Below, one piece after another: positions 5,501 through 51,670 of a DNA stretch of 64,000 nucleotides. A model generated the notes under the pieces. It did no database searches. It had not been told where the DNA came from and saw only the letters and a list, made by a program, of their open reading frames with translations. The stretch is from the IMG/VR virus record IMGVR_UViG_3300047159_000046; one strand, written 5' to 3'. The translations under genes and the position numbers were made by a program. Numbering within the stretch: position 1 is the stretch's first letter; each line of letters starts with the position of its first letter. This DNA comes from a virus. Taxonomy: Duplodnaviria; Caudoviricetes.

Positions 5501-5587
5501 TTTATTAAATTTTTATATTAATAAATAGAAAAAAGAGTTTACTTTTTACATATAATATCACTATTTATTTTAAAATATTTAAAAAAG

Positions 5588-5866: not shown

Positions 5867-5989
5867 AACGAATCTTTGTGTTTGATTGTTGGGGGGAGAA
5901 GATTTTAAATCTTTTCCCCTTTTTTATTTGCATATATCAAATTTAATGTCTATCTTTGTGGAATAAATAAATAATATATAAATAACACA

Positions 5990-6334: not shown

Positions 6335-6351
6335 ATTTAAATTATAATAGA

Positions 6352-6801
6352 ATGAAAATTAAATTTTTAAAAAAGAGAACATACTCCAGTGTAGAGACTG
6401 GAATCTCCAAGGTCAAATATCTGGTAATTCTTGATAACCAAGACAACTCCATTATGGGATGTGCCGAAGCGGTCAAAAAGAACAGAGACATCAAAGGACT
6501 TATCAAATCTGGCCTGTTGAAATATGACGAAAAGAAAAACTGTTTTTCTTTCAATGTTGATGGAAAGGCAACATGCAATAAAAAGGAAGATAAATATGAT
6601 CGAAAAAACGGTATTTCAATCGCAGATGGCAGAGCAAAATATCATGGATATAAACGATTCGCTCTTCTTTTAAGATGTTTATCAGCAGAACACAACAAAT
6701 CTATTGATGCGATTGTGTATGATCATGCCAGAATTGAAGACAAAATCAACGCACTGGGATATACAGAAAAACAGATTGCCGATATTCCTTATATCGATTA
6801 A
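6352..6801 (+). CDS. Hypothetical phage protein
   Basis: GKATCNKKEDKYDRKNGISIADGRA segment, also seen in 60797..61786. Confidence 0.65.
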   Translation: MKIKFLKKRTYSSVETGISKVKYLVILDNQDNSIMGCAEAVKKNRDIKGLIKSGLLKYDEKKNCFSFNVDGKATCNKKEDKYDRKNGISIADGRAKYHGYKRFALLLRCLSAEHNKSIDAIVYDHARIEDKINALGYTEKQIADIPYID

Positions 6802-6821
6802 ATGTAAATTATTAATTTTAT

Positions 6822-7301
6822 ATGAAACTAAAATACAAATACGTCAAAAACAATGCGTTTTGCAAAGACCTTGAGTTTATTGACAAGGGGGAAATGGTTG
6901 ATTTATATCTTCCTGATAATGTGGAATTCAAACAGAACGAAAGCAAGATGCTGAATCTGGATGTCGTTTTTGATATTCCCAATGGATATCTGATGAAGAT
7001 TTATCCTCGGTCCTCCACTTATAATAAATACAAGGTTCTTCTTACCAACAGTGTCGGAATTATTGACAGTACTTATAAGGGAGATAATGATACCATAAAA
7101 GCGGTTCTTTTTGCCACTAACCCAACATCAATCAATGCTGGAACAAGAATATTGCAATTCGAGCTGGTGCTGTCACAAAAAGCCACATTATGGCAGAAAA
7201 TAAAATGGTTCTTCTCATCTTCCGTTAAACTTGAGCGTGTACCTAATTTTGTCAGTTTTACCGACAAAAACAGGGGAGGTTACGGAAGTACGGGAATCTG
7301 A
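6822..7301 (+). CDS. dut: Trimeric dUTPase
   Basis: Motifs DL, PRSS, GIIDSTYKG, RILQ, RGGYGSTG. Confidence 0.95.
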   Translation: MKLKYKYVKNNAFCKDLEFIDKGEMVDLYLPDNVEFKQNESKMLNLDVVFDIPNGYLMKIYPRSSTYNKYKVLLTNSVGIIDSTYKGDNDTIKAVLFATNPTSINAGTRILQFELVLSQKATLWQKIKWFFSSSVKLERVPNFVSFTDKNRGGYGSTGI

Positions 7302-7421
7302 AAAGTTCAATCGTGTAACTGTGTTGCACATAAAGATTCTTTTGTATTTGATTCGCATATATGATATATGCAGATAAATCTATATGATTTATTGAACCAA
7401 ATAAAAAGCGATAGAATTAAA

Positions 7422-7453
7422 AAAGCCGATGATAAAGCAATATCATCGGCTTT
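7422..7453. terminator. Terminator hairpin between convergent genes
   Basis: AAAGCCGATGAT...ATCATCGGCTTT. Confidence 0.7.
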
Positions 7454-7474
7454 ATTTGTTTAATTATTAGTCAT

Positions 7475-10400: not shown

Positions 10401-10669
10401 TTTTGACCAGCCTCCATATTGTCCATTTTAGCCGAAACAGCAGCGTATATTCCGCTTGATTCAACTCCGTTGGTACTTGTAGAGGTAACCAGCGTATCAA
10501 GAACGATAGGCTTTGATGCCGCTGCGCTAATCACATTGTCATCCGTTATTGTGATATTATCACCAGCGGTCAGTTTCTTCTGATAAGTGAGATCTGATTT
10601 TTTTTCTACATTTGAAACTAATAATTGTAAATCCTCTGTATTAAGAAGTTTTATATATTTTATATCCAT
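7475..10669 (-). CDS. Fibre/adhesin with YadA-head (Hep/Hag-like) SHAEG repeats; probable receptor-binding or decoration fibre
   Basis: Dozens of 14-aa S/AH(A/S/V)EG repeats, IIGNG..RSNA..DW.GN connector, YQKKLTAGDNITI linkers. Confidence 0.8.
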   Translation of the reverse strand: MDIKYIKLLNTEDLQLLVSNVEKKSDLTYQKKLTAGDNITITDDNVISAAASKPIVLDTLVTSTSTNGVESSGIYAAVSAKMDNMEAGQNVVFTNDKKISSLTNINNHDGSGDDVNNKSAYTITLVGVSNNNGEIFNDYLFNTSIGDYSHAEGHNTKSSGYSSHSEGLGTQALGFVSHAEGQGTIASGSVSHTEGTSTQVYGEAAHAEGISSIANGNFSHVEGMGSVTSGIASHAEGNGSKSIGDYSHAEGRITIASGIGAHSEGLGAQAIQEGSHAEGSSFSMGYISHAEGTMTSAIGNASHSEGVYTISMGDVQHVQGKYNIADEKSSFIIGNGTNNTIRSNALSVDWDGNMKIAGNLSATTFDGKCLKDGDGNVITTTYQKKLTAGDNITITEDNIISAKAGGGSVVLDDLVTMESANGVKSSGIATSLGFASISMVNVGGDSNFYNEDQATPHNFWDLVSNQVNYQPVVVGHTSEKLGEIFNDYATNSAMAPYSHCEGYKNISSGNYSHVEGEQSSALSEATHCEGKQNKAILLASHSEGITTIASGMAAHAEGEMTRAMDDFSHAEGYGSSALGVDSHAEGSQTKSINAGCHSEGSATIAFMDAAHAEGLQTYAYGQGSHSEGHNTSAVGAFSHSMGIQTQAQGDYSCAGGLSSITYGIYDLSFGKGCTTSGIASTSFGVSAIVNGDASFVIGSASTVSGITSFAGGNSSSALSNNAFAYGANNLSNGYYSVTLGRGNVATNNNSVALGYYNTSSGIAAVSLGYMASAITDYSYSEGYKTYSKGGHSEGTSTSALSVHAHSEGQLTQAIGGAAHSEGLSTFASQPGAHAEGLQSSASSQGAHSEGSFTIANNTAAHAEGNSCLAEGEYSHSEGSFNMVSGQSSHAEGSSNRVSGSCSHAEGFNNVIGSSFKYAHVEGSYNIVSGDNQHIMGTYNKPMTNNCAFIIGNGSSDTSRNNCLTVDNYGNMVLEGELTDTKTYAIYESTEAILVLTGRSQCIYVGSTSVDVTEIRANGFYKIGDTLTIFGNGTFMIGSKTFTIKDTESSVLKLFYDGNRFCYYV

Positions 10670-10674
10670 TTTTT

Positions 10675-13104
10675 TTAATTAAATAAATCATTTATTTCTT
10701 CGGGAGTGAAATATGAAACTACTATAGATTCTCCTCCTCCTCCACCTGTACTGCTTATAACATTATCCTCGGAAATTGTTATATTGTCCCCAGCGGTTAG
10801 TTTCTTCTGATAAGTATCTGTAATTATATTTCCATTTGCATCTTCTTTCGCTTTTGTCGCATATTCTATGTTTCCTATAAACGTATTTGCAGAAACATTA
10901 CCTGTTGTCAAAACGTTTCCGCTCCAATCCATGGTCATTGCGTTGGATCGTTTGGACTGTGTTCCGTTTCCTATTACCAAAACATAATCTTCTCCTTGCA
11001 CTTCGTTATATCTACCCATGGCATGCTGTGATGCTCCGCTGGCTATTGTGAATTTTCCTTCCGAATGGGAACCGTCTGTCAACGCAGAAGTTCTCCATCC
11101 CTCCGAATGAGAATACTGACTTCTTGCGTCCGAACATCCTTCCGCATGGGCAGCAAAACCTGACGAATATGAATTAAATCCCTCCACATGGTCATTCATA
11201 CCAGATGATGCGTTGGCAGCCCCTTCAGCGTGTGAGTTTTTACCGTACACTTTATTGTTTACACCTTCGGCATGCGCTCCAGATGCGGACACTATATTAT
11301 AGTTTCCAAAAGCAAAGGAATAGTTTCCTAATGCTTGAACTTTCAAACCTCCAGCAAATGAGCTGTTCCCTGACGCTATTGTTTCATCTCCTTCCGCATG
11401 TGAGTTTTCTCCAATTGCAGATGTGGCATGTCCCTCTGCATGTGAATATTGTCCAGTAGCAACGTTCCCTGAATAGTCGTTGAATATTTCACCTACGTTG
11501 ACTATTGTTTGTGCCGTATCCGTTTTATCCTCTGTCTTTACAGAATGTCCCACAAGAACGACATTGGTTATTGCAGATGCCGTATAAGCAGAAGTGTTGT
11601 CTCCATTCAGATCATAGAATGTAATATTCTTATTGTAAGTCGTATCTATCACATTCCCCTTATAGTCCTTTTCAGCCGTTCCTGCCGATGATGCGTAATC
11701 AACCTCTCCGCTTATGGATTGTGCCGATACGCTGCCGTAGAAAATGGCATTTCCCGACCAGTCCATTATAAAAGCGTTGCTTCTCTCGCTGGCAGACAAT
11801 CCGTTTCCTATTATAACCGCAGCAGAATCACCGCTTGCTATATTGTATTTTCCCTGTACATGCTGAGCTTTTCCGCTTGCTATCGTTCCCAATCCCTCAG
11901 CATGTGAATAGGCTCCGAAAGCGGAATTCTGCTTATAGTCATTGAATACCTCACCAACTGCAGAATAAGACAGACCAGTGGTTGATGCCGTATTTCCAGT
12001 AGGGAAATATTCTGTTACCTGATAAGCACCCACTTCAGATACTTCCGTTATTCCGCTTTTATAATTGGCGTCTGTCTCGTCTCCGTTTATGTTGTAAGTA
12101 TTGGTATAAGAACTTATAATATAATTGTCCTTATCAAGTCCTATATTTGTTCCTGCGCTTACTTTTTGTTGATAAAATTCTGTTATTACTCTTCCAGAAC
12201 CGTCTTTCATTGCGTTTCCATATACGGTATCTGCAGATAAGTTTCCTTGTATGTATGTGTTTCCAGACCAATCCACGGTCATTGCGTTGGAACAGGCTGT
12301 TGATGCACTTCCGTTTCCTATGACGAATGAATATCCAGAAGTATTATCCTCCAGATTATATCTGCCCTGTACATGTTCACAATCCGCACTTGCAACGGTA
12401 CAATAACCCTCTGCATGGGAATATTTGCCCATGGCGGAATTGTTTTGATAATCATTGAATATTTCTCCTACAAGTTTATACTCAATCTCTTTTCCGTCCT
12501 TATCCTTTTCCGTGTACGTTATTTCCTGATTAAGTCCTACAAGAGTGATAGAAGAAACACTGGTGGCAGAATTGATAACGGAATCATCTCCGTTCAAATT
12601 ATGTGTAGAAACCGCAGTCTGTGCCACATTGTAGGCTTCAAGAGCGTAGTTGTACGCTTCTTCCGAATTGTCGATAGCCTTGCTTATATCCGTCTCAACA
12701 TCTTCTATTGTGGTAAGTGCCTTTGTGGCATGACTGACAGCCACCTGCACGTCATCAAGGATATCATATTCGATATGAAGCGGAGAATCTGTCGTTCCCT
12801 CTCCCTTTATGGTGTCCTTGTCAAAAACATCCTTAAAAGCACCTATATCAACCGTGGTATCTGCAGAACCGTTATATAAGGTATCGCCTGTTTCTCCTTT
12901 GAATGTAAGTGTTCCTGGCGTCTTTGCTACTTTAAAAGGATACTCTGCCGTTCCTTCTCCCTTCAAGGTGTCGTTATCTATTATAACCGCTGTGGAGGCT
13001 GTGGTTCCAGTGAGTGTACCATATTTGATAAGACTGTCTATCTGCTCCTGCGTAAGCGTAGACAAATCATATTCAATATTGTTAATGTAAATTTTGCCGT
13101 TCAT
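10675..13104 (-). CDS. Second SHAEG-repeat fibre/adhesin
   Basis: Three modules of GEIFNDY...SHAEG...QH.(Q/M)G.YN...IGNG...SNA...DWSGN; DTL.G.GT...PL motif at N-terminus; TATTTAT upstream. Confidence 0.8.
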   Translation of the reverse strand: MNGKIYINNIEYDLSTLTQEQIDSLIKYGTLTGTTASTAVIIDNDTLKGEGTAEYPFKVAKTPGTLTFKGETGDTLYNGSADTTVDIGAFKDVFDKDTIKGEGTTDSPLHIEYDILDDVQVAVSHATKALTTIEDVETDISKAIDNSEEAYNYALEAYNVAQTAVSTHNLNGDDSVINSATSVSSITLVGLNQEITYTEKDKDGKEIEYKLVGEIFNDYQNNSAMGKYSHAEGYCTVASADCEHVQGRYNLEDNTSGYSFVIGNGSASTACSNAMTVDWSGNTYIQGNLSADTVYGNAMKDGSGRVITEFYQQKVSAGTNIGLDKDNYIISSYTNTYNINGDETDANYKSGITEVSEVGAYQVTEYFPTGNTASTTGLSYSAVGEVFNDYKQNSAFGAYSHAEGLGTIASGKAQHVQGKYNIASGDSAAVIIGNGLSASERSNAFIMDWSGNAIFYGSVSAQSISGEVDYASSAGTAEKDYKGNVIDTTYNKNITFYDLNGDNTSAYTASAITNVVLVGHSVKTEDKTDTAQTIVNVGEIFNDYSGNVATGQYSHAEGHATSAIGENSHAEGDETIASGNSSFAGGLKVQALGNYSFAFGNYNIVSASGAHAEGVNNKVYGKNSHAEGAANASSGMNDHVEGFNSYSSGFAAHAEGCSDARSQYSHSEGWRTSALTDGSHSEGKFTIASGASQHAMGRYNEVQGEDYVLVIGNGTQSKRSNAMTMDWSGNVLTTGNVSANTFIGNIEYATKAKEDANGNIITDTYQKKLTAGDNITISEDNVISSTGGGGGESIVVSYFTPEEINDLFN

Positions 13105-14023: not shown

Positions 14024-14953
14024 ATGGGAAAAGTTGACAAGCTTAATACGGCTAAAAAATCAAGGGATGATGAATTCTATACTTTATTGACGGATATCGA
14101 AAAGGAGTTGATGCACTACAAAGATATATTTGTAGGAAAGACAATATACTGCAACTGCGACAATCCTGCAAAATCCAACTTTGTAAAGTGGTTCTATATG
14201 CGGTTCAATATTCTACACTTAAAGCGTATTATTGTAACTGCCTATAATTCAGATACTTGTAACGGGGGGGGGTATTATTGGGATTCCGATTTCGCTACAG
14301 TGGACACAAAAACTATTGACATCAGCAAGGAAATTGAAAAAGACGTTAGGAAACTTAACGGAGATGGTGACTTTAGAAGTGAGGAATGTATTGAGCTATT
14401 GAAGCAGGCTGATATTGTGGTTACAAATCCTCCGTTTTCGTTATTCAGGGAATATGTAACTCTATTAATGGACTATAAGAAGCAATTCATCATCATTGGT
14501 AATATGAACGCTATTGCATATAATGAAATCATTCCATATATAACAAGAAATCAAATCATGTATGGATATACAATACATTCTGGAGACAGGGAATTTCAGG
14601 TTCCAGACACCTATAACAGAACCGATAAATATAGAATAGATGCGGATGGTATCAAATATATCAGAGTGAACGGAGTCAGATGGTTCACCAATATGAGGTT
14701 GCAAGATTATAATGATAATTTGATTTTATTTAAAAAATACATTCCATGGGAATATCCGAAATTGGATAATTACGATGCAATCAACGTTGACAAAACGTGT
14801 GATATTCCTGCTGATTATGACGGAGTTATTGCAGTTCCTGTTTCATTCTTTGACAAATACAATCCAGAACAGTTTGAAATAATAGGCAAGATTGAGCCAG
14901 TTTGTCAAGGTAAGAGAATTTATAAACGGTTGTTAATAAAAAAGAAATCATAA
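14024..14953 (+). CDS. EcoRI-family adenine methyltransferase, copy 3 (intact)
   Basis: 309-aa ORF with all motifs, including VVTNPPFSLFRE. Confidence 0.9.
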   Translation: MGKVDKLNTAKKSRDDEFYTLLTDIEKELMHYKDIFVGKTIYCNCDNPAKSNFVKWFYMRFNILHLKRIIVTAYNSDTCNGGGYYWDSDFATVDTKTIDISKEIEKDVRKLNGDGDFRSEECIELLKQADIVVTNPPFSLFREYVTLLMDYKKQFIIIGNMNAIAYNEIIPYITRNQIMYGYTIHSGDREFQVPDTYNRTDKYRIDADGIKYIRVNGVRWFTNMRLQDYNDNLILFKKYIPWEYPKLDNYDAINVDKTCDIPADYDGVIAVPVSFFDKYNPEQFEIIGKIEPVCQGKRIYKRLLIKKKS

Positions 14954-18564: not shown

Positions 18565-19495
18565 ATGAACAAAAACGACAATTTACGCAATGCCAACAAG
18601 GCAAAAAACGATGAATTCTTTACACGACTGACAGATATTGAAAAGAGCTGATGCACTACAAGGAGATGTTTGTCGGAAAGACAATTTACTGTAACTGCGA
18701 TGATCCTGTCAAGTCAAACTTTGTTCAGTGGTTTTATATGCGTTTCAATATCCTACATTTGAAACGAATTATAGTAACTGCTTTTAATTCAGTCGGTTGT
18801 GGAATTTATTGGGATTCTGATTTTGCTACAGTGGACCCTAAGTCGATTGACATTAGCAAAGAAATAGAGAAAGATGTTAGGAAACTTAACGGAAACGGCG
18901 ACTTTAGAAGCGATGAGTGTATAGAGCTGTTAAAACAGGCTGATATTGTGGTCACCAATCCGCCTTTCTCGCTGTTCAGAGAATACGTCAAAGTATTGAT
19001 GGATAACAACAAAGATTTTTTAATTGTGGGAAATATGAACGCAATAACATATAAGGAGTTTTTCCCGTATATCAAGGACAACAGAATCGGGCTTGGGATT
19101 CACCAACGGAGCAAAATCGTTTATCAACCCAATGGAGTTGAAGAGAAAGATCGGACTGATATCGTTTGGTACACCACTTTGCCGATATCAAAACACAATG
19201 AGAACTTGTGCTGTTTCGTAAGCATACACCCCAGAAGAGTTTCCCAAATATGACAATTATGATGCCATAAATGTTGACAAGACGTGCGATATACCTGCTG
19301 ATTACGATGGCGTTATGGGTGTTCCAATTTCATTTCTTGATAAATATAATCCGAAACAGTTTGAAATATTAGGATGCGATTGGTAGATATAGTATGATAG
19401 ATGGTCCTACAGAACAAACAAAAGGAAAATATCTAACAAATATAAACGGTAAACCAAAATACGCCAGAATATTAATAAAAAGAAAGATTGTATGA
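18565..19495 (+). pseudogene. EcoRI-family adenine methyltransferase, copy 4 (frameshifts at ~18645 and ~19200-19400)
   Basis: MNKNDNLRNANKAKNDEFFT... through NPPFS and the C-terminal motifs, across frames; own promoter TATCTTTG ~18532. Confidence 0.75.
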
Positions 19496-20422
19496 ACAAT
19501 AATGACAATTTAAGTAACGCCAGAAAAATAAAGAATGATGAGTTCTATACTTTATTGACTGACATCGAAAAGGAGTTGATGCACTACAAAGAGATGTTTG
19601 TCGGAAAGACCATCTATTGTAACTGCGATGATCCCGTAAAGTCCAACTTCGTTCAGTGGTTCTATATGCGGTTCAATATTCTACACTTAAAGAGAATTAT
19701 TATAACTGCCTATAATTCAGATACTTGTAACGGGGGTGGGTATTATTGGGATTCCGATTTCGCTACAGTGGACCCGAAAGCTATTGACATTAGCAAAGAA
19801 ATTGAGAAGGATGTCAGGAAACTCAATGGAAACGGTGACTTCCGAAGTGATGAATGTATCGAGTTGTTAAATCAGGCGGATATTGTTGTTACAAACCCTC
19901 CATTCTCTTTGTTCAGAGAATATGTTAAAGTGTTGATGGATAATAACAAAGACTTTGTTATTCTTGGAAACATGAATGCTATAACGTACAAGGAAGTATT
20001 CCCGTATATCAAGGAGAACAGGATAGGGTTGGGATATCTTAATGGAAATAAAAAATTTCATAACAGTGGATAATAAAGAACAACCTATTAGAGCATTTTG
20101 GTATACCACTTTGCCGATTGCGAAACATAATGAAGAACTTGTATTGTTCAGAAAGTACTCTCCAGAAGAATATCCGAAGTATGACAATTACGATGCCATA
20201 AACGTTGACAAAACGTGTGATATACCAGAGGATTATGATGGTGCGATGGGTGTTCCTATTTCATTTCTTGACAAGTACGATCCCAAACAATTTGAAATTA
20301 TAGACGGTTTTAACAGATATTCATTTCTTACTGGTCCTACGGAACAGACACAAGGAAAATATCTATCAAAGATTAATGACATACCAAAATATGCAAGAAT
20401 AATAATTAAAAAGAAACAATAA
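19492..20422 (+). CDS. EcoRI-family adenine methyltransferase, copy 5 (one frameshift ~20050)
   Basis: Two ORF halves join at an A-run; complete motif set. Confidence 0.8.
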
Positions 20423-30970: not shown

Positions 30971-31060
30971 TCTTTTTTTATTTTGTTTATATTATCTCTT
31001 TTAAAAAAATACATTTTTTTATTTTTTTTTATTTTTTTTCGGGATGTGTAGTTATCAGGC

Positions 31061-31430
31061 GTTGACCTGTCAGATACTCATGGCTTATGTGTGGTCCCGT
31101 TCTTGGCGTGGCCCTGTCAGATACCATGGAAATGTGTGGTCCAGTTAGGGTGTTGCCCTGTCTGGTGCCGTGGGAACCGACTGTCCCGCTCTCGGTGTTT
31201 CCCTGTCTGGCACCATGGGAATGTGTGGTTTCGTTAGGATGTTGCCCTGTCAGGTTGCGTAGGAATCTACTGTCCCGCTCTCGGTAGCGTGTTGCCCTGT
31301 CAAGTACCATGGGAACCGACTGTTCCGTTAGGATGCTGCCCTGTCAAGTGGCGTAGGAATGTGTAGTCCCGTTAGGATGTTGCCCTATCAGATACCGTGG
31401 GAATCCACCGTCCCGCTCTCGGTAGCGTGG
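31061..31430. repeat. GC-rich degenerate tandem repeat, 8 units, period 44-50 bp
   Basis: GTTGCCCTGTCA-like core at 31061, 31108, 31152, 31197, 31241, 31291, 31335, 31379. Confidence 0.85.
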
Positions 31431-31608
31431 CAGGCCCCCCCCCATTTTTTAAAATTTTTTTTTAAAAATTTTAGATGGGGAACTGCGCCCTGTTCTGAGC
31501 CCGAAAAACCTACGAAACTGGGTGGGGTTACGTAGGTAGGGGTGGGGTGGGGCTATGAAAGGTGGGCTATCACCACCCCATGGTAACAGCCCACCTTTTC
31601 AAAAAAAA

Positions 31609-31624
31609 TGTTTCACGTGAAACA
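31609..31624. promoter_or_regulatory. parS: parS site 1
   Basis: Exact TGTTTCACGTGAAACA. Confidence 0.85.
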
Positions 31625-31635
31625 TCAGTTACGAA

Positions 31636-31651
31636 TGTTTCACGTGAAACA
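31636..31651. promoter_or_regulatory. parS: parS site 2
   Basis: Exact TGTTTCACGTGAAACA. Confidence 0.85.
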
Positions 31652-31661
31652 TATAGTTTGC

Positions 31662-31961
31662 TTAGCACTCGCCGATGGCAGCCGTCAATTTGGCTCTAAA
31701 TTCGGCGAGGTCACCGCTTTCGGTGCGAGGCTCACCGAGGCTCACCCGTGCCCCTTTGAGGGTAATAGGGTAGTATGCCCCACCTTTGAGGTGTGCCTCG
31801 CCATAAGAGGCTCTTGCCTCTTTGAAAGAGGCTACTGCCTTGGCGAGTAGGTCGGCGAGGGTTTTTGCCCGTACGACCTTTGTTGATTTTTGGCCGTCCT
31901 TGTTGGCGGTCATTACGTTTGCGACTAAAAGACTTGCGAACTCTGATTTGCTAACTAACAT
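31662..31961 (-). CDS. Small basic hypothetical protein
   Basis: Own promoter (32044-32051), structured leader, terminator hairpin ~31557-31600. Confidence 0.7.
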   Translation of the reverse strand: MLVSKSEFASLLVANVMTANKDGQKSTKVVRAKTLADLLAKAVASFKEARASYGEAHLKGGAYYPITLKGARVSLGEPRTESGDLAEFRAKLTAAIGEC

Positions 31962-32438
31962 AGCGTTATGCGGTTTAAACTTACCACCGCAAAGTTTTAA
32001 TATGCCTCAATCGGTGGGGCTGCCGTTGTTCCTTTGAACGATACAAAGATACGGCAAAGTGTTGAGACTACCAAATAATTTCCCAATTATTTTCAAATTA
32101 TTTTACAAATAGCTGAAATACAATAATTTACAAAGATAGATTTTTTTCCGTTATTGTAGGTAGGTAGATAGGATAACGGGTAAAACGTAGGATAACGGGT
32201 AACAATGTAAGAAAGGGCAAAATAACGTGAAATAAGGCGTTTTGGGGCACTTTTGTAGGTAGTTGGATAAACCATATCCAAATTTAAATAAAACGCTTTA
32301 AAACGCTTTAAAATGAATATCCGACAATTCCAAATATTTCAGCAAGATTTAACAAACTTTAACATTTTGGAAATAGGCAAAAAAATAGGGCTGCCCTATT
32401 GAGGATAACCCTATTTTCTTTGTTTTATAAAACGGGGT

Positions 32439-32804
32439 TTAATCCGCCCGTCTTACAAAACAGAAAACCGACTGGACTTGCCCTTTATGCGGTCCGTCCG
32501 AAAAGCGTACGCTCTTCGGGTGACTTGTCGCTGGGGCGACCAAGTCGTTTCGGTCCTTGCAAGCGGACAATACCATGCCCGACACTATGTATAGCGTGCC
32601 CTCTTGTGGCTCAGGCAAGCCCTCAACAGCCCCGAAGGTAGGGGTGGCGATGCCGTTTTCATCGGGTTCGGTGTAACCCGAAGAAATCCGAGGGCAAACG
32701 CCCGAAGGTGGGAACTTTGTCCCGTCATTCAAGCACACCTCATGAGGCGTGCAATTTACAAATGTGATTTTTTCCATGTTTGCTGAATTGTTAGTTGTTG
32801 TCAT
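32439..32804 (-). CDS. Conserved phage hypothetical protein (N.TPH...GLPEP.EG..YIVS family)
   Basis: FVNCTPHEV, GLPEPQEGTLYIVS, RNDLVAPAT; start reassigned to after the leader. Confidence 0.75.
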   Translation of the reverse strand: MTTTNNSANMEKITFVNCTPHEVCLNDGTKFPPSGVCPRISSGYTEPDENGIATPTFGAVEGLPEPQEGTLYIVSGMVLSACKDRNDLVAPATSHPKSVRFSDGPHKGQVQSVFCFVRRAD

Positions 32805-33302
32805 ACTTACTATGGGCTTAGCCTTTACAGCCCTTAGGTTTAATACGCCCCAATCGGTGGGGCTGCCGTTGTTGATACGTTTTGTTCGTTTCAACACAGC
32901 AAAGATACGGCAAAGGGTTGAAACTACCAAACATTTTTGCAATTATTTTTGAAAAATCTGCAAAATAATTTATAAGTATCTGAAAATAAGATAAATAAAG
33001 AATGATGTTTTTTTCGTTTGGTAGAATGATATATATATATTGTTTGCTGATATACATACATTGCGTTCGCTTTTCGTTGTGTTCCCTACAAACATAAAAT
33101 AAGGCGTTTTGGGGCACTTTCTTTGTTGGGGTGGATAACTTATGCCTATTTTGAGCAAAACCGCTTTAAAACGCTTTAAAATGGAAAGTTGAGAAATCCA
33201 AATGTTTTTGAAATATTTAACATTTTTTAACATTTTCAAATACGGCAAAAAAAAATAGGGCTGCCCCTATTTCAAGAGCAGCCCTATTTTTATAGCTTGT
33301 TT

Positions 33303-33518
33303 TTAGTCCCTATCTAAATACCATGGTATCCAGAAACATATTAGGGTTGCTACTATTGTGACACCCGCCATGAATGCGGTGCAATAGTCACCCGCCACAA
33401 GGGCAGCGGGAAGGGCTATAATAGCCACCGCCGTTAGCAGCCCTACGAAACTAAGCAAGAAAACTATTGCCACGTCCTCGATTTCAATACCTTTAAAAAA
33501 ATCTACTACCTTTTTCAT
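33303..33518 (-). CDS. Small 2-TM membrane protein
   Basis: Promoter-leader-gene-terminator cassette. Confidence 0.7.
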   Translation of the reverse strand: MKKVVDFFKGIEIEDVAIVFLLSFVGLLTAVAIIALPAALVAGDYCTAFMAGVTIVATLICFWIPWYLDRD

Positions 33519-33822
33519 TTTACTAATAATTTAAACAGCCCTAATCGGCGGGCTTGCCGTTGTTGAAATACGTTTCGTTTGTTTCAACACAGCAAAGATA
33601 TATCGAAATGTTGAGACTACCAAACAAAAAGTAAATTATTTTTGAATTATTTTATAAGTTGCTGATATATAGCAAAATAGAATTTTATTTTTGTGTTCGC
33701 TGCCCGTCCGCCTGGTGCGCTATTGACAATTCCAAATTTTTTAACATTCTTTAACAAACTTTAACATTTTGGAACAAGGCAAAAAAATAGGGCTGCCCTC
33801 TTTCAAGAACAGCCCTATTTTT

Positions 33823-34158
33823 TTAGAATACACGTCCCCTCTGAACGTGAACCCATGTAGGTTCGTTAGGATTAGGCGCGGGTCTTGTCTCCCACTGCCT
33901 TTCAGATGCGAACCAAACGGGTTCTGTGGTTGTTTTGTTATCAAAACGGAAATGCCCCTGCACCCCATGGGCTTGTATTTGTGTCCGAAGGTAGGCGACC
34001 GCCTCTTCAAATGTTGTCGCCGATGGTACTGCGACAATACACTCAAAGGTCTGCGACCATCCTTGCAGCCATTCTTTAGTAGAAAGACCGCCAAGACGGT
34101 TCATGCCAGTAGTCTTAATGCCTTCAAATCTGCTAAAAATTTCGCTTAAATTACGCAT
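33823..34158 (-). CDS. Hypothetical protein
   Basis: Start MRNLSEIF after the structured leader; cassette. Confidence 0.7.
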   Translation of the reverse strand: MRNLSEIFSRFEGIKTTGMNRLGGLSTKEWLQGWSQTFECIVAVPSATTFEEAVAYLRTQIQAHGVQGHFRFDNKTTTEPVWFASERQWETRPAPNPNEPTWVHVQRGRVF

Positions 34159-34385
34159 TTTTAAAAGAGGCTTAACCTTTACAGCCGTAGGTTTTAACGC
34201 CTCAATCGGTGAGGCTGCCGTTTGTCTTTCAACACAGCAAAGATAGGGCAAAATGTTCAGACCACCAAATTTTTTCTCAATTATTTTCAAAAAAGTTTTT
34301 AAGTGGCTGATACGCACGCATATACGCATACTGAATTTAGTATGCAGATATATGTAGCTATATCCTATCTTTGCCGAAACGTATT

Positions 34386-34613
34386 TTAATACGTTTCATA
34401 ATAATATTTGGGGTAACTTTTGCCCGTTTCTGTTAGGTAACCCCAATAACCTAAGTCAATAGCAAGGCATTGCATAAACACAACACCCGACAAGCCACAA
34501 AATAGGGCTGCCGTTTTGGGGGTGGTGAAATAGTCACCTAATACTATACCTAAAATCAAAAAAGATACCATAAAGAGGACAACGGCGATAAGATAAAATT
34601 TGTTGAAATTCAT
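34386..34613 (-). CDS. Small 2-TM membrane protein
   Basis: Cassette with own promoter. Confidence 0.7.
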   Translation of the reverse strand: MNFNKFYLIAVVLFMVSFLILGIVLGDYFTTPKTAALFCGLSGVVFMQCLAIDLGYWGYLTETGKSYPKYYYETY

Positions 34614-35093
34614 AACTCTATATTTTTTAGTCTCCCACTAACATCGGGTGGGCATCCGTTTGTTGGTTAGTTCCAACACAGCAAAGGTATATATAATTTT
34701 TAAAACCGCAAAATATTTTATCAATTATTTTCAATATTTTTTTAACCGCTTTTCGCTTGTCCCCTCTTTGCCGTTTGTTTGTGCCGATATGATACACTAC
34801 ATCGAACGACAACAAGAATGAAAAGATTTTATCTGCATACTCAATATATTTGAAATATTGCATCATACGCATTTTAAGGCGTTTTGAGGGACTTTTGTCG
34901 ATATGAATGTATGTTTGTAGGGACGGGCAAACAAAACCCGTCACAACGAAAAATTCATATTTCAAAACATTATGCAATAAAAATTTCAATCCGCATATAT
35001 ATACGGATACTGAAAATAGTATGTAGGTATAAACACACAAAAAAACCATACATATTCTGCATGGTTTTTTATATAGTGTTTGTTCTTGTTTGT

Positions 35094-35738
35094 TTAGTCT
35101 TCGTCTTCTGCGTACATACAATTCAGAGCGTCCCGTCTGCTAAACATACAATAAACGTGAGTCGGCATATCATGCCTTGAATACATATCGGCGCATACAT
35201 CGCTTGCCTTGAATAGCTGCAAAAATCTGCATCTGCCAATTTGTTTCCATGGTGTCCCAACGTATTTTGAGCAATTCACCATTTTATAGCCCGTATTGAC
35301 AATAGCCCATGATTTTTTGCGCAATTCTTCGGTTGTTTTGCCGAAAAAACTGGCTGGGTAAAATTTGGTTTTTTCAACAATAACCTTTGTAATATGATAT
35401 TTTTCAGGCTCTCCTACTAATTTATCAGTCCGTCCGAACATACCTTGTTCGTCCCTGATTTCAGGAAAACCCAAACAAAAATCGGACTGTCTTGATACCT
35501 CGCCGTTCTTTTCGATTTCGTCATAGTTCTGTTTATAAATTTCGTCCCCTAATTGAGGGGCAAAGAGTCTGCCCGAAAAACAATTTTTTTCCCACAATTG
35601 GGGATAATTATATTTATTATATGGAGAATATTCTCTTGTCATGATAGTCTCCTTCTCACCCGTTTTGTCGTTTGTAACCTCAAAAACGTAGGCAATTTTT
35701 TTGCCAAACTCAAAAATCTTATCATTTAGTTCAGACAT
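35094..35738 (-). CDS. Hypothetical protein
   Basis: Start MSELNDK after promoter 35786-35793. Confidence 0.7.
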   Translation of the reverse strand: MSELNDKIFEFGKKIAYVFEVTNDKTGEKETIMTREYSPYNKYNYPQLWEKNCFSGRLFAPQLGDEIYKQNYDEIEKNGEVSRQSDFCLGFPEIRDEQGMFGRTDKLVGEPEKYHITKVIVEKTKFYPASFFGKTTEELRKKSWAIVNTGYKMVNCSKYVGTPWKQIGRCRFLQLFKASDVCADMYSRHDMPTHVYCMFSRRDALNCMYAEDED

Positions 35739-36189
35739 ATCTTTAAAATTTTTAGTAGTCGTTGGGACTATTCCCAAACGCATAACAAAGATAGATAAAA
35801 TATCTGATATAACCAAATATTTTATATGTTTTTTTTATAAAGAAATATTTTTATATTTTGCCCGTTGTTTTGCCGTGAAATTGAATATATACTTTTTTAC
35901 ATATACATTCTTCATACCTTTGCGTTTGTGGACTAACACTACTATATAGTGTTTATAATACAGCAGCCGTAAAAACGACTGAAATTTAAATCTTTTGTAG
36001 CTAATATCCAAAAGATTAACCAATACGAAAAGCCCGAAACAAACATATAATATATTAATATATTGATAATTTTTTAATGTTGGGACAAATATAATGTTAT
36101 TTGCTGATATATCCAAACTTTTTAACACAAAAAAATACCTACCACTTTCACAAGCAGTAGGTATCTGGCTAAAAATATAAAGTATTATG

Positions 36190-36471
36190 TTATTCTTTTT
36201 CTATGTATTTCACGCACTGGATATATGAACTTTCAATGCGTATTTTATACACACCTTTGGGCAACCAATCCCAAACAGGTATGCAAATTTCGCCGTTTAT
36301 AACCTCTCTTTGTTCAACTGATAAACAGCCGAAACAAGTTTCTATGTATAGGGTGGCAAGCCCGTCACAGTTGTCTCCATCTGCAACTTTTGCGCACACC
36401 TCTTCGGGTTGTGCGTTTAAAGAACATAAAGAACAAAGAATAAGGCTCAAAGATGCTATTAACTTTTTCAT
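36190..36471 (-). CDS. Secreted mini-protein: signal peptide plus T9SS type-A C-terminal-signal-like domain
   Basis: MKK-hydrophobic-LNA|Q; ...LPKGVYKIRI......KYIEKE. Confidence 0.55.
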   Translation of the reverse strand: MKKLIASLSLILCSLCSLNAQPEEVCAKVADGDNCDGLATLYIETCFGCLSVEQREVINGEICIPVWDWLPKGVYKIRIESSYIQCVKYIEKE

Positions 36472-36557
36472 AACTTATAATTTTTAATTGTTGGTACAAA
36501 GATAGTAGTAATATTTGAAAAAAGCAATAGCAAAAGTGTTAAAAAAAAACATTGATC

Positions 36558-37275
36558 TTTTAACACTTTTTGTTTGGGAAAGTCCCGAAAATTTCGTAAC
36601 TTTGTATGGTGCACTAAACCGAAAATGTTAAAATTGTGTTAAAATCTGCAAAGAAAAAACCTCGAAAATTTAACACTTTTTATTTGCTTTTGTACCGAAA
36701 ATTTCGTAACTTTGTATGGTGCGCTATTTTGGAATGTTAACGAAAGTTAAAATACGTTACAAAAATAGCCTGAAAATTTAACACTTTTTATTTGCTTTTG
36801 TACCGAAAATTTCGTAACTTTGTATGGTGCGCTATTTTGGAATGTTAACGAAAGTTAAAATACGTTACAAAAATAGCCTGAAAATTTAACACTTTTTATT
36901 TGCTTTTGTACCGAAAATTTCGTAACTTTGTATGGTGCGCCAAACTGAAAATGTTAAAACGAAAGTGTTAAAATAAGTGTTGCCGTTTTCTCCTGAAAAT
37001 TTAACACTTTTTATTTGCTTTTGTACCGAAAATTTCGTAACTTTGTATGGTGCACTAAACTGAAAATGTTAAAATAGTGTTAAAAAGTGTTGCCGTTTTC
37101 TCCTGAAAATTTAACACTTTTTATTTGCTTTTGTACCGAAAATTTCGTAACTTTGTATGGTGCACTAAACTGAAAGTGTTAAAATAGTGTTAAAAAGTGT
37201 TGCTGTTTTCTCCTGAAAATTTAACACTTTTTATTTGGAAAAGTCGCAAATTTTGCGTACCTTTGTATGACACCC
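36558..37275 (+). repeat. Tandem array of 7 host-type promoter units (period 108-115 bp), non-coding
   Basis: TTAACACTTTTTATTTG...CCGAAAATTTCGTAACTTTGTATGGTGC; -7 boxes at 36597, 36707, 36815, 36923, 37038, 37148, 37258. Confidence 0.85.
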
Positions 37276-37342
37276 AAAACTTAACTTTTTACACAACAAA
37301 AAAACAGAATAGTTTTTTGCTATTCTGCTTTTTTATATCTTT

Positions 37343-37537
37343 TTATATCCTACTTTTAAAAAAGTCGACATAATCTGCCCACTCTTTGAAATTTCGGGTT
37401 TTTTCGTAATCTTGTTTGGAAAGCCGTTTTTTAACTTAGGTGAAATAGTCACCGCCAATCCTATAATCGGCGACAACATAAAAACCCCTTTTGTCCTTGT
37501 TAAAAACCATACAGAGGCACTCAAATTCTTGTTTCAT
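37343..37537 (-). pseudogene. Short gene with internal TAA (37436-37438)
   Basis: MKQEFECLCMVFNKDKRGFYVVADYRIGGDYFT*VKKRLSKQ...KSRI*, with promoter and leader. Confidence 0.45.
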
Positions 37538-38231
37538 ACTACAAAACCGCTTTTTCAACCACCAGCAGTAGGTTCTAAGTTCATTTTCAATACACAAAGA
37601 TAACATAAAAATCTGATACTACCAAATTTTTACCTATCTTTTTTTGGGGTTTTTATATTTCGTTGTTGTATGTAATTGCGTGCGACTTTATAAGCAATAA
37701 CCAACACCAAAAATTTGGTATCACCGCCAAAACCATCCAGACCTCGAAATTGAAGTCTTCATTTGCCCATAACAAGCAACGGACAAATGAAGAATGTCAT
37801 AAACCCGTATGCGAATACAGAAGAAATACGACAAAAACTCTTTCATGAACTTTATAATTTTTAGTAGTACGTAGGGACTATTCCCAAACGCACTACAAAG
37901 ATAAGCCGTTTTTTAGATATATCCAAATATTTTGCCGATTATTTTCAATCTTTTTTTATTGTCCTTTTTGTGTGTGTTTGAATATCCTACAATAACACAC
38001 AATAACGAAAGAAACGGCAAATAAGGCACTTTAATTGCGTTTTGAGGGACTTTTGTATGAAATACGGGTAAACTAACTACAACGGGTCAATAATGCGCTT
38101 AAAACGCTTTAAAATGAATATCCGACAATTCCAAACATTCAGGAGAATTTTAACATACTTTAACATTTTTGAATACGGGTAAAAAAATAGGACTACTTTT
38201 TGTGTAGTCCTATTTTATTTTGTTTTATGAT

Positions 38232-38652
38232 TTAGCCTAAAATTTTTGTTTCTCCGCCATCTACCATATACTCAAAATGTTCTTCATTTGTGTCTATACT
38301 CCAAACGGGTGTATAATATGTAAAAAATCTGTTCACCGTTTGGATAAAAGTATGATAAATATGCCTCTTTTGCATTGTTTAGGATATGTAGTTCCCTATA
38401 TCTGTTAGAGCTATTTTTTCTAAACTCGCCGTTTTTCTTGATGTTTTTGCCATATAGCCACAAAACGCCTTTCACCATCTGCACATTGGTCAATTTGATA
38501 GGCAGAATATCAGCAATTAAATTGCTTATTTCCTTTTCATTTTCCTTACTCTTGTTCATTCTGTTTTTCAGTAACAAAATTTGCTTTTCAGTGGCAAAAC
38601 CTTGTTCTTTAATTGTTGCTACTAATTCTGCATTTGAAATTGTTTTTGCCAT
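38232..38652 (-). CDS. Paralog family A (GFATE.QI.L.K.R.NK), frameshift near 38330
   Basis: Homologous to 44861..45271 and 45434..45859; C-terminus YTPVWSIDTNEEHFEY...KILG lies in another frame. Confidence 0.7.
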
Positions 38653-38814
38653 AATACTAATTTTTTTTAATGTTTAAATGTTTTGTTTGTTCCCTTGAAC
38701 AATGCAAAGATACAAATAAAGTTCGGAAAAACAATAGCAAAAGTGTTAAAAATTTAATTATTTTTTTAACACTTTTTGTTTGGTATTGTCGGCAAAAAAC
38801 GTTACCTTTGTAGT

Positions 38815-38985
38815 GTAATTAAAAAAGCAACAATATGTAAAACTAAAAGCCACACTCAACAAGGCAAAACGACAACGGGAAACGGCATCACACCCGATTG
38901 ACAAATAAGGCGGTCGAACAATACGAAATAGGTGTTATAAAGTTACTATTTTGGGAAGGAGGAGACAAAACACGCACTTTTTTTA
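38815..38985 (+). ncRNA. Structured ncRNA family, copy A (ATG-TAA mini-ORF)
   Basis: Own promoter 38803-38810, covarying helices across six copies, ends in CACGCAC plus T-run. Confidence 0.7.
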
Positions 38986-39182
38986 AAAGTTAAAAAGTGT
39001 TAATTTTTTCCTGCGAACGAAAGTTTGGGGTGTCATACAAAGTTACGAATTTTTTGGGACTTTTCCAAATAAAAAGTGTTAAAATTCTGTTAAAAAATCG
39101 CCTGAAATTTTAACATATTTTAACGAAAAAAAAAACGGGCTCTCCATTTGGAAAACCCGTTTTTTGTTTATGTTAATTTCTG

Positions 39183-39533
39183 TTAAATCCCAATACGTTT
39201 TTCTATTGCTTTTTGCAAATCTGCATTATACCAATCCCGTGCCTTTCCTACAAAAAACGCTTTCATGGTATCAAAGTTTTTAAAATTAGCTTTTATGCCG
39301 TCCGTTATGATATTATTAAAATCGGACTCGTCTTGTGAATGTTTCCCACCCCAATCACGGATATCCCGTAGTTTTTGGTATGTTTCATACAACTTATAAT
39401 AAAATGTTTCACGTGAAACATTTAGTCGTAGCTGAGGTGCTTTATTTTGCCTCTTTTTAAAGTCTTCGGGTAAAAAATAATTGAACATCAAAAGGGAAAA
39501 TCTTTCATTAATCGATAAATTTTCAGTATTCAT
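39183..39533 (-). CDS. Hypothetical protein (contains parS)
   Basis: Cassette; NVSRETF is encoded by the parS site. Confidence 0.65.
   Translation of the reverse strand: MNTENLSINERFSLLMFNYFLPEDFKKRQNKAPQLRLNVSRETFYYKLYETYQKLRDIRDWGGKHSQDESDFNNIITDGIKANFKNFDTMKAFFVGKARDWYNADLQKAIEKRIGI
39405..39420. promoter_or_regulatory. parS: parS site 3
   Basis: Exact TGTTTCACGTGAAACA inside a CDS. Confidence 0.8.
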
Positions 39534-39676
39534 AATAACTTTATTTTAGTAGTACGTTGGGACTATTCCCAAACGCAAAACAAAGGTACAAAATGTTTTT
39601 TGAATAAACAAGAAAAAAAGTGAATATTTTATTAGGATATTCACTTTTTTTGTTTATAGGTTTTTTATATATATTA

Positions 39677-40114
39677 TTATATAGCTGCTGTTTGGGCTCT
39701 TTCTGTCTCCTCAACATCTACCAATGTATTCTTTTTGAGGTCGTTAAAAAGTTCGTCACAAAATTTAACGGACCTCAAAATATTATATCCAAAATAATGA
39801 TATAAGGAACTTTTCCTTTTTTCTAATCTTGTCGCAAATTCATTTCTATATCTATCAGCCTTTTCCAAATCGGCAAGGGTCAATGTTTTATTTTTATCAT
39901 ATAGTTGGGCTGCCCAACATACCATCTCGGTGAATGTTTCACGTGAAACATTTTCATCAAAAATCAAATAGGGTGGTATTTCCTCTGTTGGTACGTTGTC
40001 GCAAAAAGAGGACAACATATTGATGCTGAATTGCATATACTTTGCATACTCAGCATATTCACCCATGTTCATTACACCCTTGTTTGCCCACTTCTCAAAT
40101 CTGCTTAGTTTCAT
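39677..40114 (-). CDS. Hypothetical protein (contains parS)
   Basis: Cassette; NVSRETF is encoded by the parS site. Confidence 0.65.
   Translation of the reverse strand: MKLSRFEKWANKGVMNMGEYAEYAKYMQFSINMLSSFCDNVPTEEIPPYLIFDENVSRETFTEMVCWAAQLYDKNKTLTLADLEKADRYRNEFATRLEKRKSSLYHYFGYNILRSVKFCDELFNDLKKNTLVDVEETERAQTAAI
39935..39950. promoter_or_regulatory. parS: parS site 4
   Basis: Exact TGTTTCACGTGAAACA inside a CDS. Confidence 0.8.
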
Positions 40115-40466
40115 AACTTTTGTTTTTAGTAGTTCGGCACTATTGCCGTTTGATTATGCCACAAAGATAGACCAAATAAACCATATATCCAAATATTTTA
40201 TCAATTATTTTCAATTTATTTTCAATTCTTTTCTGCTTGCACCCGTGCGTGCGGATACTGAATTTGGTATCGGCTAAATTTAGCTGTTTTTAGCCCCACT
40301 ACGACACTTTCGGGTAAAAGTGGATAAAACTATTCACTTTCCACACAAAACGCTTTAAAATCGCTTAAAATAGCTTGTGTTGCGTTTCTTGATATAGTTG
40401 ATACACACAAAAAACGGCAAGAACATTCTGTTTGTCCTTGCCGTTTCTGTTATGATGTTGTATTCT

Positions 40467-45859: not shown

Positions 45860-46021
45860 AACCTTTAATGTTTTGTTGTTTTTGTTGATGCAAAGATACA
45901 AATAATGTTTGAAAAAGCAATAGCAAAAGTGTTAAAATTTCAAAGATCTTTTTAACACTTTTCGCTTAAAATAAATGCCCAAAAGTTTTGCATATTACAG
46001 ATTTTTGCGTATCTTTGTAGT

Positions 46022-46199
46022 GTAATTAAGAAAGCAACAAATATGAATACAACGTAAACTAAAAAGCCACACAAAACAAGGCAAAGATAAAACGGGAAAA
46101 GGCATCGCACCCGATTGACAAAAAGCGGACGAACAATACGAAATAGGTGTTACAAAGTTACTATTTTGGGAAGGAGAAGACAACACACGCACTTTTTTT
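46022..46199 (+). ncRNA. Structured ncRNA family, copy D (MNTT* at 46043-46057)
   Basis: Promoter 46010-46017; opposing promoters 46254-46261 and 46364-46371. Confidence 0.7.
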
Positions 46200-46494
46200 A
46201 AAAGTTAAAAAGTGTTAAAACGTTCATACGAATGGACAGTTTTGGGTGTCATACAAAGTTACGAAAAATTTGGGACTTTTCCAAACAAAAAGTGTTAAAG
46301 TTTTACTTTAAATTATTCACACTAATTAACACTGTTTTAACACTTTAGATTTAAAGTGTCATACAAAGTTACAGAATTTTTTTGAAAAAAACAAACAAAA
46401 AGTGTTAAATTTCTCCTGAACTTTTTAACATTTTTTAACAAAAAAAACGGGTTCTCCGCTTGGAAAACCCGTTTTTCGTTTATGTTAATTTATG

Positions 46495-51070: not shown

Positions 51071-51474
51071 AACTCTATTTTTTTTAATTTAGTAATATTG
51101 TTTATTTCCTTTAACGCTACAAAGATACATCTTTTATTTTGAACTACCAAACTTTTTGCAGATTATTTTTGAATTATTTTATCCGACTTGATGGTATGTT
51201 CCTATCTTTGTTGATGCAAAGGTACAAACAAAATACGACAAAAGCAATAGCAAAAGTGTTAAAAAAAACATTGATCTTTTAACACTTTTTTCTTGTTTTT
51301 ATCCAAAATTTTCCGTAACTTTGTATGGTGCGCAATTTTGGAATGTTAATGAAAGTTAAAATCTGCAAAGAAAAATACCTCGAAAATTTAACGTTTTTTG
51401 TTTGGAAAAGTCCCGAAAATTTCGTAACTTTGCATGACACCCTAAACCGAACAAATTAACACTTTTTAACTTTT

Positions 51475-51670
51475 TTAAAAAAGTGCGTGTTTTGTCTCCT
51501 TCTTCCCAGAATAGTAACTTTGTAACACCTATTCCGTATTGTTCGTCCGACTTTTTTATTTGTTCGGGTGTGATGCCTTCTCCCGAAATATCTTTGCCTT
51601 GTTGAGTGTGGCTTTTAGTTTATGTTGTGTTCATCTTATTTACGTTTTTAGTTTAACTTGTTTCCTTTAA
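51475..51670 (-). ncRNA. Structured ncRNA family, copy E (MNTT* at 51620-51634)
   Basis: Promoter 51676-51683; opposing promoters 51316 and 51425. Confidence 0.7.

Follow-up and report, generated by a model that had tools for sequence, protein, structure and literature searches.

The 64-kb stretch of viral DNA analysed here (the window) encodes a tail spike, SbcCD, a sliding clamp, ThyX, a dUTPase and a holin, which identify it as phage; its source is a giant T4-like phage infecting a member of the Bacteroidota. The genome is at least 226 kb long, with a full size of probably about 360 kb, and the window represents about a fifth to a quarter of it. The host phylum was assigned from the promoters, since Bacteroidota promoter motifs occur 74 times in the window compared to 6.4 expected. 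Neither tRNA genes nor Rfam families were found in the window, and megablast and tblastn searches against GenBank phages returned no useful close relatives. Two distant relatives (G090 and G091) were recognised via gp46 (41% identity); both are fragments (153 kb together) in which the early region has no counterpart and neither parS nor ParB_N is present. Because the available relatives are either very close (at least 78% identity) or too distant to share the early region, they provide a weak test of parS conservation.

The exact 16-mer TGTTTCACGTGAAACA occurs four times in the 64 kb (parS-1, 31609-31624; parS-2, 31636-31651; parS-3, 39405-39420; parS-4, 39935-39950; no strand assigned to any of them), the first two copies being intergenic and the last two lying within genes. 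By chance 0.01 copies are expected and none of 100 shuffles reached four or more; permitting up to three mismatches added no site in the window (0.55 expected). All four fit exactly the 16-bp chromosomal parS consensus TGTTNCACGTGAAACA by which binding sites of ParB/Spo0J are recognised, and with their immediate flanks all four are the 18-bp palindrome ATGTTTCACGTGAAACAT; they have in common the 19-bp core AATGTTTCACGTGAAACAT, outside which the flanking sequence is unrelated. An earlier note on this DNA had reported four perfect copies of a chromosomal-type parS in a phage window devoid of parA and parB, and each part of that claim stands: the same four positions were recovered far above chance, the 16-mer is identical to the parS of Bacteroidota genomes, and ParB_N, HTH_ParB and ParA-type Pfam families gave no match at E ≤ 0.01 among the 87 ORFs of the window, while ParB_N and HTH_ParB were both matched in a Bacteroides thetaiotaomicron control genome. 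A chimera with host origin DNA, by which the note supposed that its claim might fall, was rejected, as the sites are flanked by phage ORFans, whose relatives are all from phages, and the independent contigs L210 and P0011 share the same junctions. On the host side, the exact 16-mer or a 20-mer was found in contigs of Alistipes, Muribaculaceae, Bacteroidales, Geofilum, Chryseobacterium and Chitinophagales, and chromosomal parS sites in Bacteroidota are clustered at a single locus (2-7 sites at up to one mismatch). Within the order of a Bacteroidales MAG (the likely host order), only 21 of 81 genomes contain exact parS, with a maximum of two copies each, so that the phage with its four copies equals or exceeds its host.

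The intergenic copies are spaced 27 bp start-to-start, and parS-2 begins 11 bp past the stop codon of a 99-aa gene on the minus strand (31662..31961, 53% GC). This gene and, past it, the parS pair are driven by a Bacteroidota-type promoter (TTTG-N-TAnnTTTG; 32044..32075, minus strand). The two parS copies pair together in a hairpin (31600..31652, minus strand) with a 19-bp stem, a 7-nt loop and a folding energy of -27.6 kcal/mol (z = -6.2), which starts about 10 nt past the stop codon and is followed by U8; judged from its sequence, the pair looks like an intrinsic terminator ending the transcript of the 99-aa gene. A stable hairpin with a U-tract after a stop codon was found at the parS pair only, the genic sites having no such arrangement. 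The 99-aa gene is kept at 71-93% identity in 24 metagenome proteins and its product has a predicted alpha/beta fold (pLDDT 71) without significant PDB match; Pfam and PHROG gave no match and the ESM Atlas returned nothing. It was considered as a ParB-like or centromere-binding candidate and rejected on these grounds and for want of any resemblance to ParB. A 167-aa gene (32439-32942) has a homologue lying 78 bp from a parS in the phage record G088 but at no other parS locus, and the association is provisionally treated as coincidence. None of the genes neighbouring the parS sites has an annotation. Next to the pair stand eight GC-rich (56%) repeats of 44-50 bp (31058..31429, no strand), after which come an AT-rich palindrome and G-runs; the layout of this stretch is iteron- or sopC-like.

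All four sites lie within early transcription units with host-type promoters, a position that would also suit an operator: a DNA-binding regulator of early genes other than ParB, of phage or host origin, might use the palindrome, its match to parS being convergent. We consider this highly improbable, since convergence on the 16-bp consensus four times without a mismatch is very unlikely, no candidate regulator adjoins the sites and the 99-aa protein shows no match to a DNA-binding fold.

The genic sites belong to an early operon that runs on the minus strand from a Bacteroidota-type promoter (40162..40193) to a terminator-like hairpin (39165-39130). parS-4 lies in its gene P0002 (39677..40114, a 145-aa ORFan) and parS-3 in P0001 (39183..39533, a 116-aa ORFan), both of 32% GC and both on the minus strand, and in each the site is read as (N)VSRET(F). 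The earlier note had pointed out that these adjacent and otherwise unrelated genes both encode NVSRETF, and had suggested selection on the DNA rather than on the protein. Both points are strengthened: BLASTP between P0001 and P0002 found similarity limited to NVSRETF, and codon usage gives P = 0.0023 per gene for NVSRET being spelled as parS, an improbability that favours a constraint acting on the DNA, not the peptide. All 13 homologues of P0001 (78-97% identity) have NVSRETF unchanged, as does every homologue of P0002 (92-95% identity) that spans the site, and a JGI contig of 92% identity contains both genic parS without a mismatch. The JGI metagenome scan for relatives of the parS genes yielded one 3.6-kb contig; neither P0001 nor the 99-aa gene had relatives among IMG/VR or GTDB contigs, and a profile search of the whole library with P0001 returned the family itself and one spurious repeat protein, without distant relatives.

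Base composition sets the intergenic pair apart, as it lies within a GC-rich island (53-56%) in a genome of 33% GC. This would agree with the sites being passengers without present function, the pair having come with a GC-rich module recently imported from another element and a 21-bp motif having been gene-converted into the two genes; the flanks that all four copies have in common past the 16-bp core also look as if they were copied from one another. However, the genic sites stand outside the island in ORFans of low GC, and the sites persist through variants of 78-97% identity. The AA...T flanks carry no private signature and follow a general viral parS preference, A being present at position -1 in 71% of 213 viral sites (in the phage, 8 of 8 half-sites have this A compared to 45% in sampled host sites). 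Additionally, the island had no match in the plasmid collection, and the phage collection matched the parS pair alone. We therefore regard passenger status as very unlikely.

Two proteins from other samples have their junctions exactly at parS sequences. In P0012, NVSRETF is the exact point where the N-terminal half of P0002 gives way to the C-terminal half of P0001, whereas in P0011 P0002 is fused to a read-through of the parS pair; this implies either that stretches of 530 bp and 8.3 kb between parS copies were deleted or that the sequences were mis-assembled. Such junctions, along with the 19-bp stem and U8 just past a stop codon, would fit an explanation by nucleic-acid structure, in which the pair serves mainly to end transcription of the 99-aa gene, and the dispersed identical copies of 19-21 bp are recombination points that shuffle or delete the variable early region. 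A likeness is offered by the repeated promoter/stem-loop cassettes of T4-type phages that Arbiol et al. reportedly described in 2010. Against this, neither a terminator nor a recombination repeat needs the exact universal parS four times, the genic copies stand mid-gene without a U-tract, and each fusion was found just once, on a contig of about 1.5 kb, where an assembler may have joined sequences across the 21-bp repeat. We judge this explanation decidedly unlikely. The terminator-like hairpin, the sites at deletion junctions and the phi29 precedent taken up below are all absent from the earlier note.

parS without ParB is not confined to this phage. Of 10 parS-bearing IMG/VR records with a completeness of 90% or more, 8 have no ParB_N, and the complete G088 (113 kb) has four parS sites without ParB_N, HTH_ParB or AAA_31. 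Clostridium phage phiCP7R has seven parS, including three tandem pairs, and tandem spacings of 23-27 bp are common among viral parS pairs. The records G103, G104, G106, G107, G109, G113 and G088 and phiCP7R resemble the window in their exact copies of the 16-mer, which form tandem pairs at a spacing of 23-27 bp accompanied by distal site(s) 7-12 kb away; the IMG/VR tandem-pair records searched also resemble it in having no ParB_N gene, while phiCP7R is likened to it by its sites and pairs alone. These phages differ from the window in belonging to unrelated lineages, in their GC content (30% and 54-55% where measured) and in having mostly intergenic sites, and the Bacteroidota promoter signature is missing from G103, G113 and the G088 region. 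Among 191 other parS-bearing viral loci none resembled a Bacteroidota phage, so the host phylum offers no parallel case. The parS sites of phiCP7R are unmentioned in the genome paper of this Clostridium perfringens phage. Orphan parS pairs thus seem to be common on phages without ParB, which points to a general and little-studied mechanism.

Some parS-bearing viral records (G089, G100, G111 and G097) do encode ParB_N, and the window covers only about a fifth to a quarter of its genome, so a ParB-family protein encoded by the phage outside the window (parABS or KorB-like) might read the sites, with host ParB being irrelevant or a competitor. Partition cassettes, however, normally stand beside their centromere, and no ParB or ParA is encoded in the 64 kb that contain all known sites. 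Phage and plasmid ParB proteins also usually use private spellings, whereas the universal host spelling is found here exactly four times. With ParB_N missing from most complete parS-bearing phage records and no ParB in the 153 kb of G090 and G091, we consider a phage-encoded reader rather unlikely.

Because the window combines four perfect parS with the lack of a ParB gene in 64 kb, host ParB is most likely borrowed, and we hold with roughly even confidence that the four sequences are working parS by which the phage chromosome captures host ParB. Dimers of host ParB (a Spo0J-type, CTP-dependent clamp) would recognise parS once the phage chromosome has been injected, load at these sites and spread from them across the early region (about 25-46 kb of the window), thereby linking the phage DNA to the ParA/SMC chromosome-handling machinery of the host. 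The most likely use would be in cells where infection stalls (a carrier or pseudolysogenic state), in which the unpackaged phage genome would be retained and positioned. Bacteroidota form no endospores, and such a state might be the counterpart, among hosts that do not sporulate, of phi29 entering spores via Spo0J and parS. Draining ParB from the few host sites might be a side effect or an alternative use. The earlier note had likewise proposed that host ParB may be recruited to segregate or position the phage genome, or titrated away from the host chromosome. On the other hand, DNA modification, frequent among T4-like phages, could block ParB, partition is of no obvious use to a strictly lytic giant phage, and the host phylum offers no parallel case; all three count against the capture of host ParB.

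Bacteroidota are a dominant phylum of gut and sludge, and their phages are known for persistent (carrier) infections that are poorly understood. A broader scenario, which we put forward tentatively and as possible rather than probable, is that a nominally lytic T4-like phage of about 360 kb in a non-sporulating Bacteroidota host plugs into ParB-CTP/ParA/SMC via four parS sites, two of them in coding sequence, and is held, positioned or silenced in a dormant carrier phase; the 23-27-bp parS pairs on phages lacking ParB would then represent a general host-centromere mimicry across unrelated lineages. Beyond phi29, no description of such mimicry by tandem parS pairs on ParB-less phages was found in the literature searched. 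If host ParB does load at these sites, lytic phages would exploit the host centromere system outside the spore strategy of phi29 too, with giant phages of Bacteroidota among them, and the four 18-bp sites would offer a testable handle on the upkeep of a non-integrating phage genome in dividing cells, or on disturbed host segregation.

Compared with known systems, the window shares with chromosomal ParABS (parS, ParB/Spo0J and SMC loading) the identical 16 bp, the clustering of sites within a few kb and the placement of sites inside genes, as in B. subtilis, where one parS lies within spo0J; it differs in being viral, in having no parA-parB operon beside the sites and in its more uniform flanks. 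The cassettes of plasmids and prophages (P1 parABS, F sopABC, N15, actinophage parABS) similarly place centromere sites on an extrachromosomal replicon, and the adjoining array of ~45-bp repeats is reminiscent of F sopC (12 x 43 bp). Unlike the window, these elements bring ParA and ParB genes of their own along with private centromere sequences; no Pfam family of an adjoining parA-parB or sopAB pair was found among the 87 ORFs. KorB-OB systems and dispersed phage ParB/KorB operators also involve palindromes for ParB-family clamps in or near transcription units, with silencing as a possible outcome, but there KorB/ParB is encoded by the element and the sites are many and genome-wide, whereas the window has only four in the host spelling. 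A published precedent is the lytic Bacillus phage phi29, whose genome has five parS and travels with the host chromosome by way of host Spo0J (PMC2731898). Like the window, phi29 and its relative Nf carry several copies of the host chromosomal parS on phage DNA. phi29, however, is a protein-primed podophage with a 19-kb genome that infects a spore former, where its sites have been shown to serve entrapment in the spore, whereas the window comes from a giant T4-like phage whose host lies outside the spore formers, with two sites in genes and one pair doubling as a terminator-like hairpin. Since Bacteroidota lack endospores, the biological purpose must differ from that in phi29, and the mechanism may nevertheless be alike.

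The exact palindrome TGTTTCACGTGAAACA occurs in the window at 31609, 31636, 39405 and 39935, as the earlier note had reported, with a chance expectation of about 0.01 and four copies reached in none of 100 shuffles. Allowing up to three mismatches uncovers no additional, degenerate site, and every copy in the window is perfect. When flanking bases are included, each of the four forms an 18-bp palindrome (ATGTTTCACGTGAAACAT), and 19 bp are common to all (AATGTTTCACGTGAAACAT); further out the flanks are unrelated, so the sites do not belong to a longer repeated unit. They match exactly the 16-bp palindrome of chromosomal-type parS, the identity that the same note had given them, and the 20-mer AATGTTTCACGTGAAACATT is present in many phyla, Bacteroidota included (Alistipes, Muribaculaceae, Bacteroidales, Geofilum, Chryseobacterium and Chitinophagales, among others). 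Four such genomes each have 2–7 sites, counting those with up to 1 mismatch, clustered on one contig; in three of these genomes the cluster spans no more than about 2 kb, and one Alistipes genome has a pair with 47-bp spacing. The exact 16-mer was found in 21 of 81 genomes from the order of a Bacteroidales MAG, never in more than two copies, so that the phage, with four perfect sites in 8.3 kb, has at least as many as a host chromosome. An A at position -1 is present in 45% of host half-sites compared to 8/8 phage half-sites, and in 71% of viral parS pairs generally. It is highly improbable that the palindrome is instead the operator of another regulator.

The window (GC about 33%) encodes two tail-spike-like proteins matching Flavobacterium phage tail spikes, together with SbcC/SbcD, a sliding clamp, ThyX, dUTPase, thioredoxin and a holin. 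The Bacteroidota promoter motif TTTG-N17-23-TAnnTTTG is present in 74 copies versus 6.4 expected, mostly on the minus strand ahead of small genes between 30 and 64 kb; this excess and placement identify the host as a Bacteroidota bacterium and the 30–64 kb block as an early region transcribed by the host RNA polymerase. Dispersed repeats of 170–310 bp with 81–94% identity (38803-39084, 45995-46299, 51387-51641 and others) lie across this region and surfaced on aligning the window with L210, an independent contig containing window junctions. Additionally, seven window ORFs (1874-2470, 2821-3372, 14024-14953, 18651-19253, 19492-20073, 20042-20422 and others) match Pfam EcoRI_methylase (best E 1e-109), and six ORFs match a single locus of the distant relative G091; these methylase genes or gene fragments form a paralogous array. 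From the two nearest IMG/VR relatives (gp46, 41% identity), which measure 46.6 kb and 106 kb and are rated 13% and 29% complete, respectively, a whole genome of roughly 360 kb is suggested. Within the 64 kb of it covered by the window, none of the 87 ORFs matches a ParB or ParA family (Pfam, E ≤ 0.01), in agreement with the earlier claim that parA and parB are absent there; that the sites are read by a phage ParB encoded outside the window is unlikely. As judged from sequence, there is about an even chance that the four function as parS sites and capture the host's ParB. The captured protein would likely position, retain or locally silence the phage chromosome by way of ParA/SMC, probably during infections that stall or enter a carrier state; alternatively, the sites could serve to titrate ParB.

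The sites at 31609 and 31636 form an intergenic pair (starts 27 bp apart) that begins 11 bp past the end of a minus-strand gene of 99 aa (31662-31961, stop codon included), whose host-type promoter lies at 32044-32075. Because each site is palindromic, the two pair with each other, and the minus strand folds into a 19-bp stem with a 7-nt loop (-27.6 kcal/mol, z = -6.2) directly followed by eight U. The pair thus has the stable hairpin and U-tract past a stop codon that define an intrinsic terminator, and it appears to double as that of the 99-aa gene. Beyond it there are a second hairpin, G/C runs, an AT-rich palindrome and then eight GC-rich (56%) repeats of 44–50 bp each (31058-31429). The layout of these repeats, with the elements that follow up to 31600, resembles F sopC and iterons; a search of the plasmid collection with the island returned nothing, and matches among the phages collected were confined to the parS pair itself. 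GC content from 31058 to 31961 is 53–56%, the AT-rich palindrome and the parS pair excepted, versus 33% for the genome, and it is very unlikely that the sites are non-functional passengers of an imported GC-rich module. A cassette of promoter and conserved 5' leader is repeated at 31990-32075, 32850-32931, 33560-33624 and 34200-34269, ahead of several small GC-rich genes; its read-through translation gives ...NGSPTDWG... or ...LPYLCCVE..., and the homologues P0044 and P0048 carry that leader fused in front. An array of seven tandem Bacteroidota-type promoters lies on the plus strand at 36559-37265, between the parS clusters and where long ORFs are lacking. The promoters sit within a 110-bp repeat (6.2 copies, 88% matches), and some 60 nt rich in TGTTAAAA come after each of them.

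The other two sites are located inside ORFans of one early operon (promoter 40162-40193, terminator-like hairpin 39165-39130): 39405 in P0001 (116 aa, 39183-39533, minus strand) and 39935 in P0002 (145 aa, 39677-40114, minus strand). These genes are otherwise unrelated and both encode NVSRETF at parS, which had been taken to suggest selection on the DNA. Under phage codon usage, the probability that NVSRET is spelled by the exact parS codons is 0.0023 per gene and 5e-6 for both; selection on the peptide alone therefore does not explain two perfect palindromes, and the suggestion stands. Conservation was assessed in close variants only: NVSRETF is invariant across 13 P0001 homologues (78–97% identity) and is kept in all P0002 homologues covering the site, and no distant P0001 homologue emerged when 1.8 billion representative proteins were searched with a profile. 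A JGI contig of 92% DNA identity has both genic 16-mers exact, which is consistent with DNA conservation but weakly so, because at that identity roughly one 16-mer in four would be unchanged anyway.

P0011 and P0012, singleton proteins encoded on ENA contigs of other samples, are chimeric with junctions exactly on parS. P0012 joins the N-terminal half of P0002 to the C-terminal half of P0001 (equivalent to window positions 39183-39404 joined to 39951-40114), whereas P0011 joins the same N-terminal half to the translated spacer, second parS and hairpin region below 31609 (equivalent to 31600-31651 joined to 39951-40114). Unless they are mis-assemblies, they imply between-parS deletions of 530 bp (P0012) and 8.3 kb (P0011). 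Real recombinants are plausible in a recombination-proficient T4-like phage; the other source would be assembler joins across a 21-bp repeat. A solely structural or recombinational role of parS, to which such junctions might correspond, is quite unlikely. In either case, P0011 places the parS pair in phage context in an independent sample. A chimera of the window with origin-proximal host DNA, which the earlier note had raised against its own reading, is excluded by P0011, L210 and 24 phage-only homologues of the 99-aa gene.

Exact parS is common in IMG/VR contigs, and ParB_N is absent from eight of the ten parS-bearing records at least 90% complete. A family of mostly complete genomes of 42–43 kb (G103, G104, G106, G107, G109 and G110; GC 55% in G103, the sole member measured; direct terminal repeats in G103 and G104) has no ParB_N gene and a fixed layout, with two parS sites spaced by 23–25 bp and a third, exact one about 7.2 kb off; G113 has a 27-bp pair and a third site 12 kb off. 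G087 carries 24 sites without ParB_N, and G088 (113 kb, complete) four within 4.8 kb without ParB_N, HTH_ParB or AAA_31. A 167-aa window protein (32439-32942, phrog_21731), probably genuine only in its last 112 residues, has a homologue (36% identity) in the unrelated G088 (L331 7114-7449), 78 bp from parS; no homologue lies beside parS in about 190 other viral loci. None of the comparator phages, including phiCP7R below, is related to the window phage, and the Bacteroidota promoter signature was seen in 0 of 191 viral loci examined, with no second example found for the host phylum. parS on phages is nevertheless a recurring device. The lytic Clostridium perfringens podovirus phiCP7R (NC_017980.1; 18.4 kb), whose host is a spore former, has seven parS-like sites in 5096-12148, of which four are exact and three have one mismatch; six of them form three tandem pairs 25–26 bp apart and one stands alone, and the genome paper of this phage makes no mention of parS (PMC3362512). 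With its five parS sites, the Bacillus phage phi29 relies on host Spo0J for entry into the spore (PMC2731898). The window phage, with four, shares with it the presence of several host-type parS sites; however, spore entrapment is impossible in a Bacteroidota host, and the window phage is therefore a variant rather than a member of the phi29 case.
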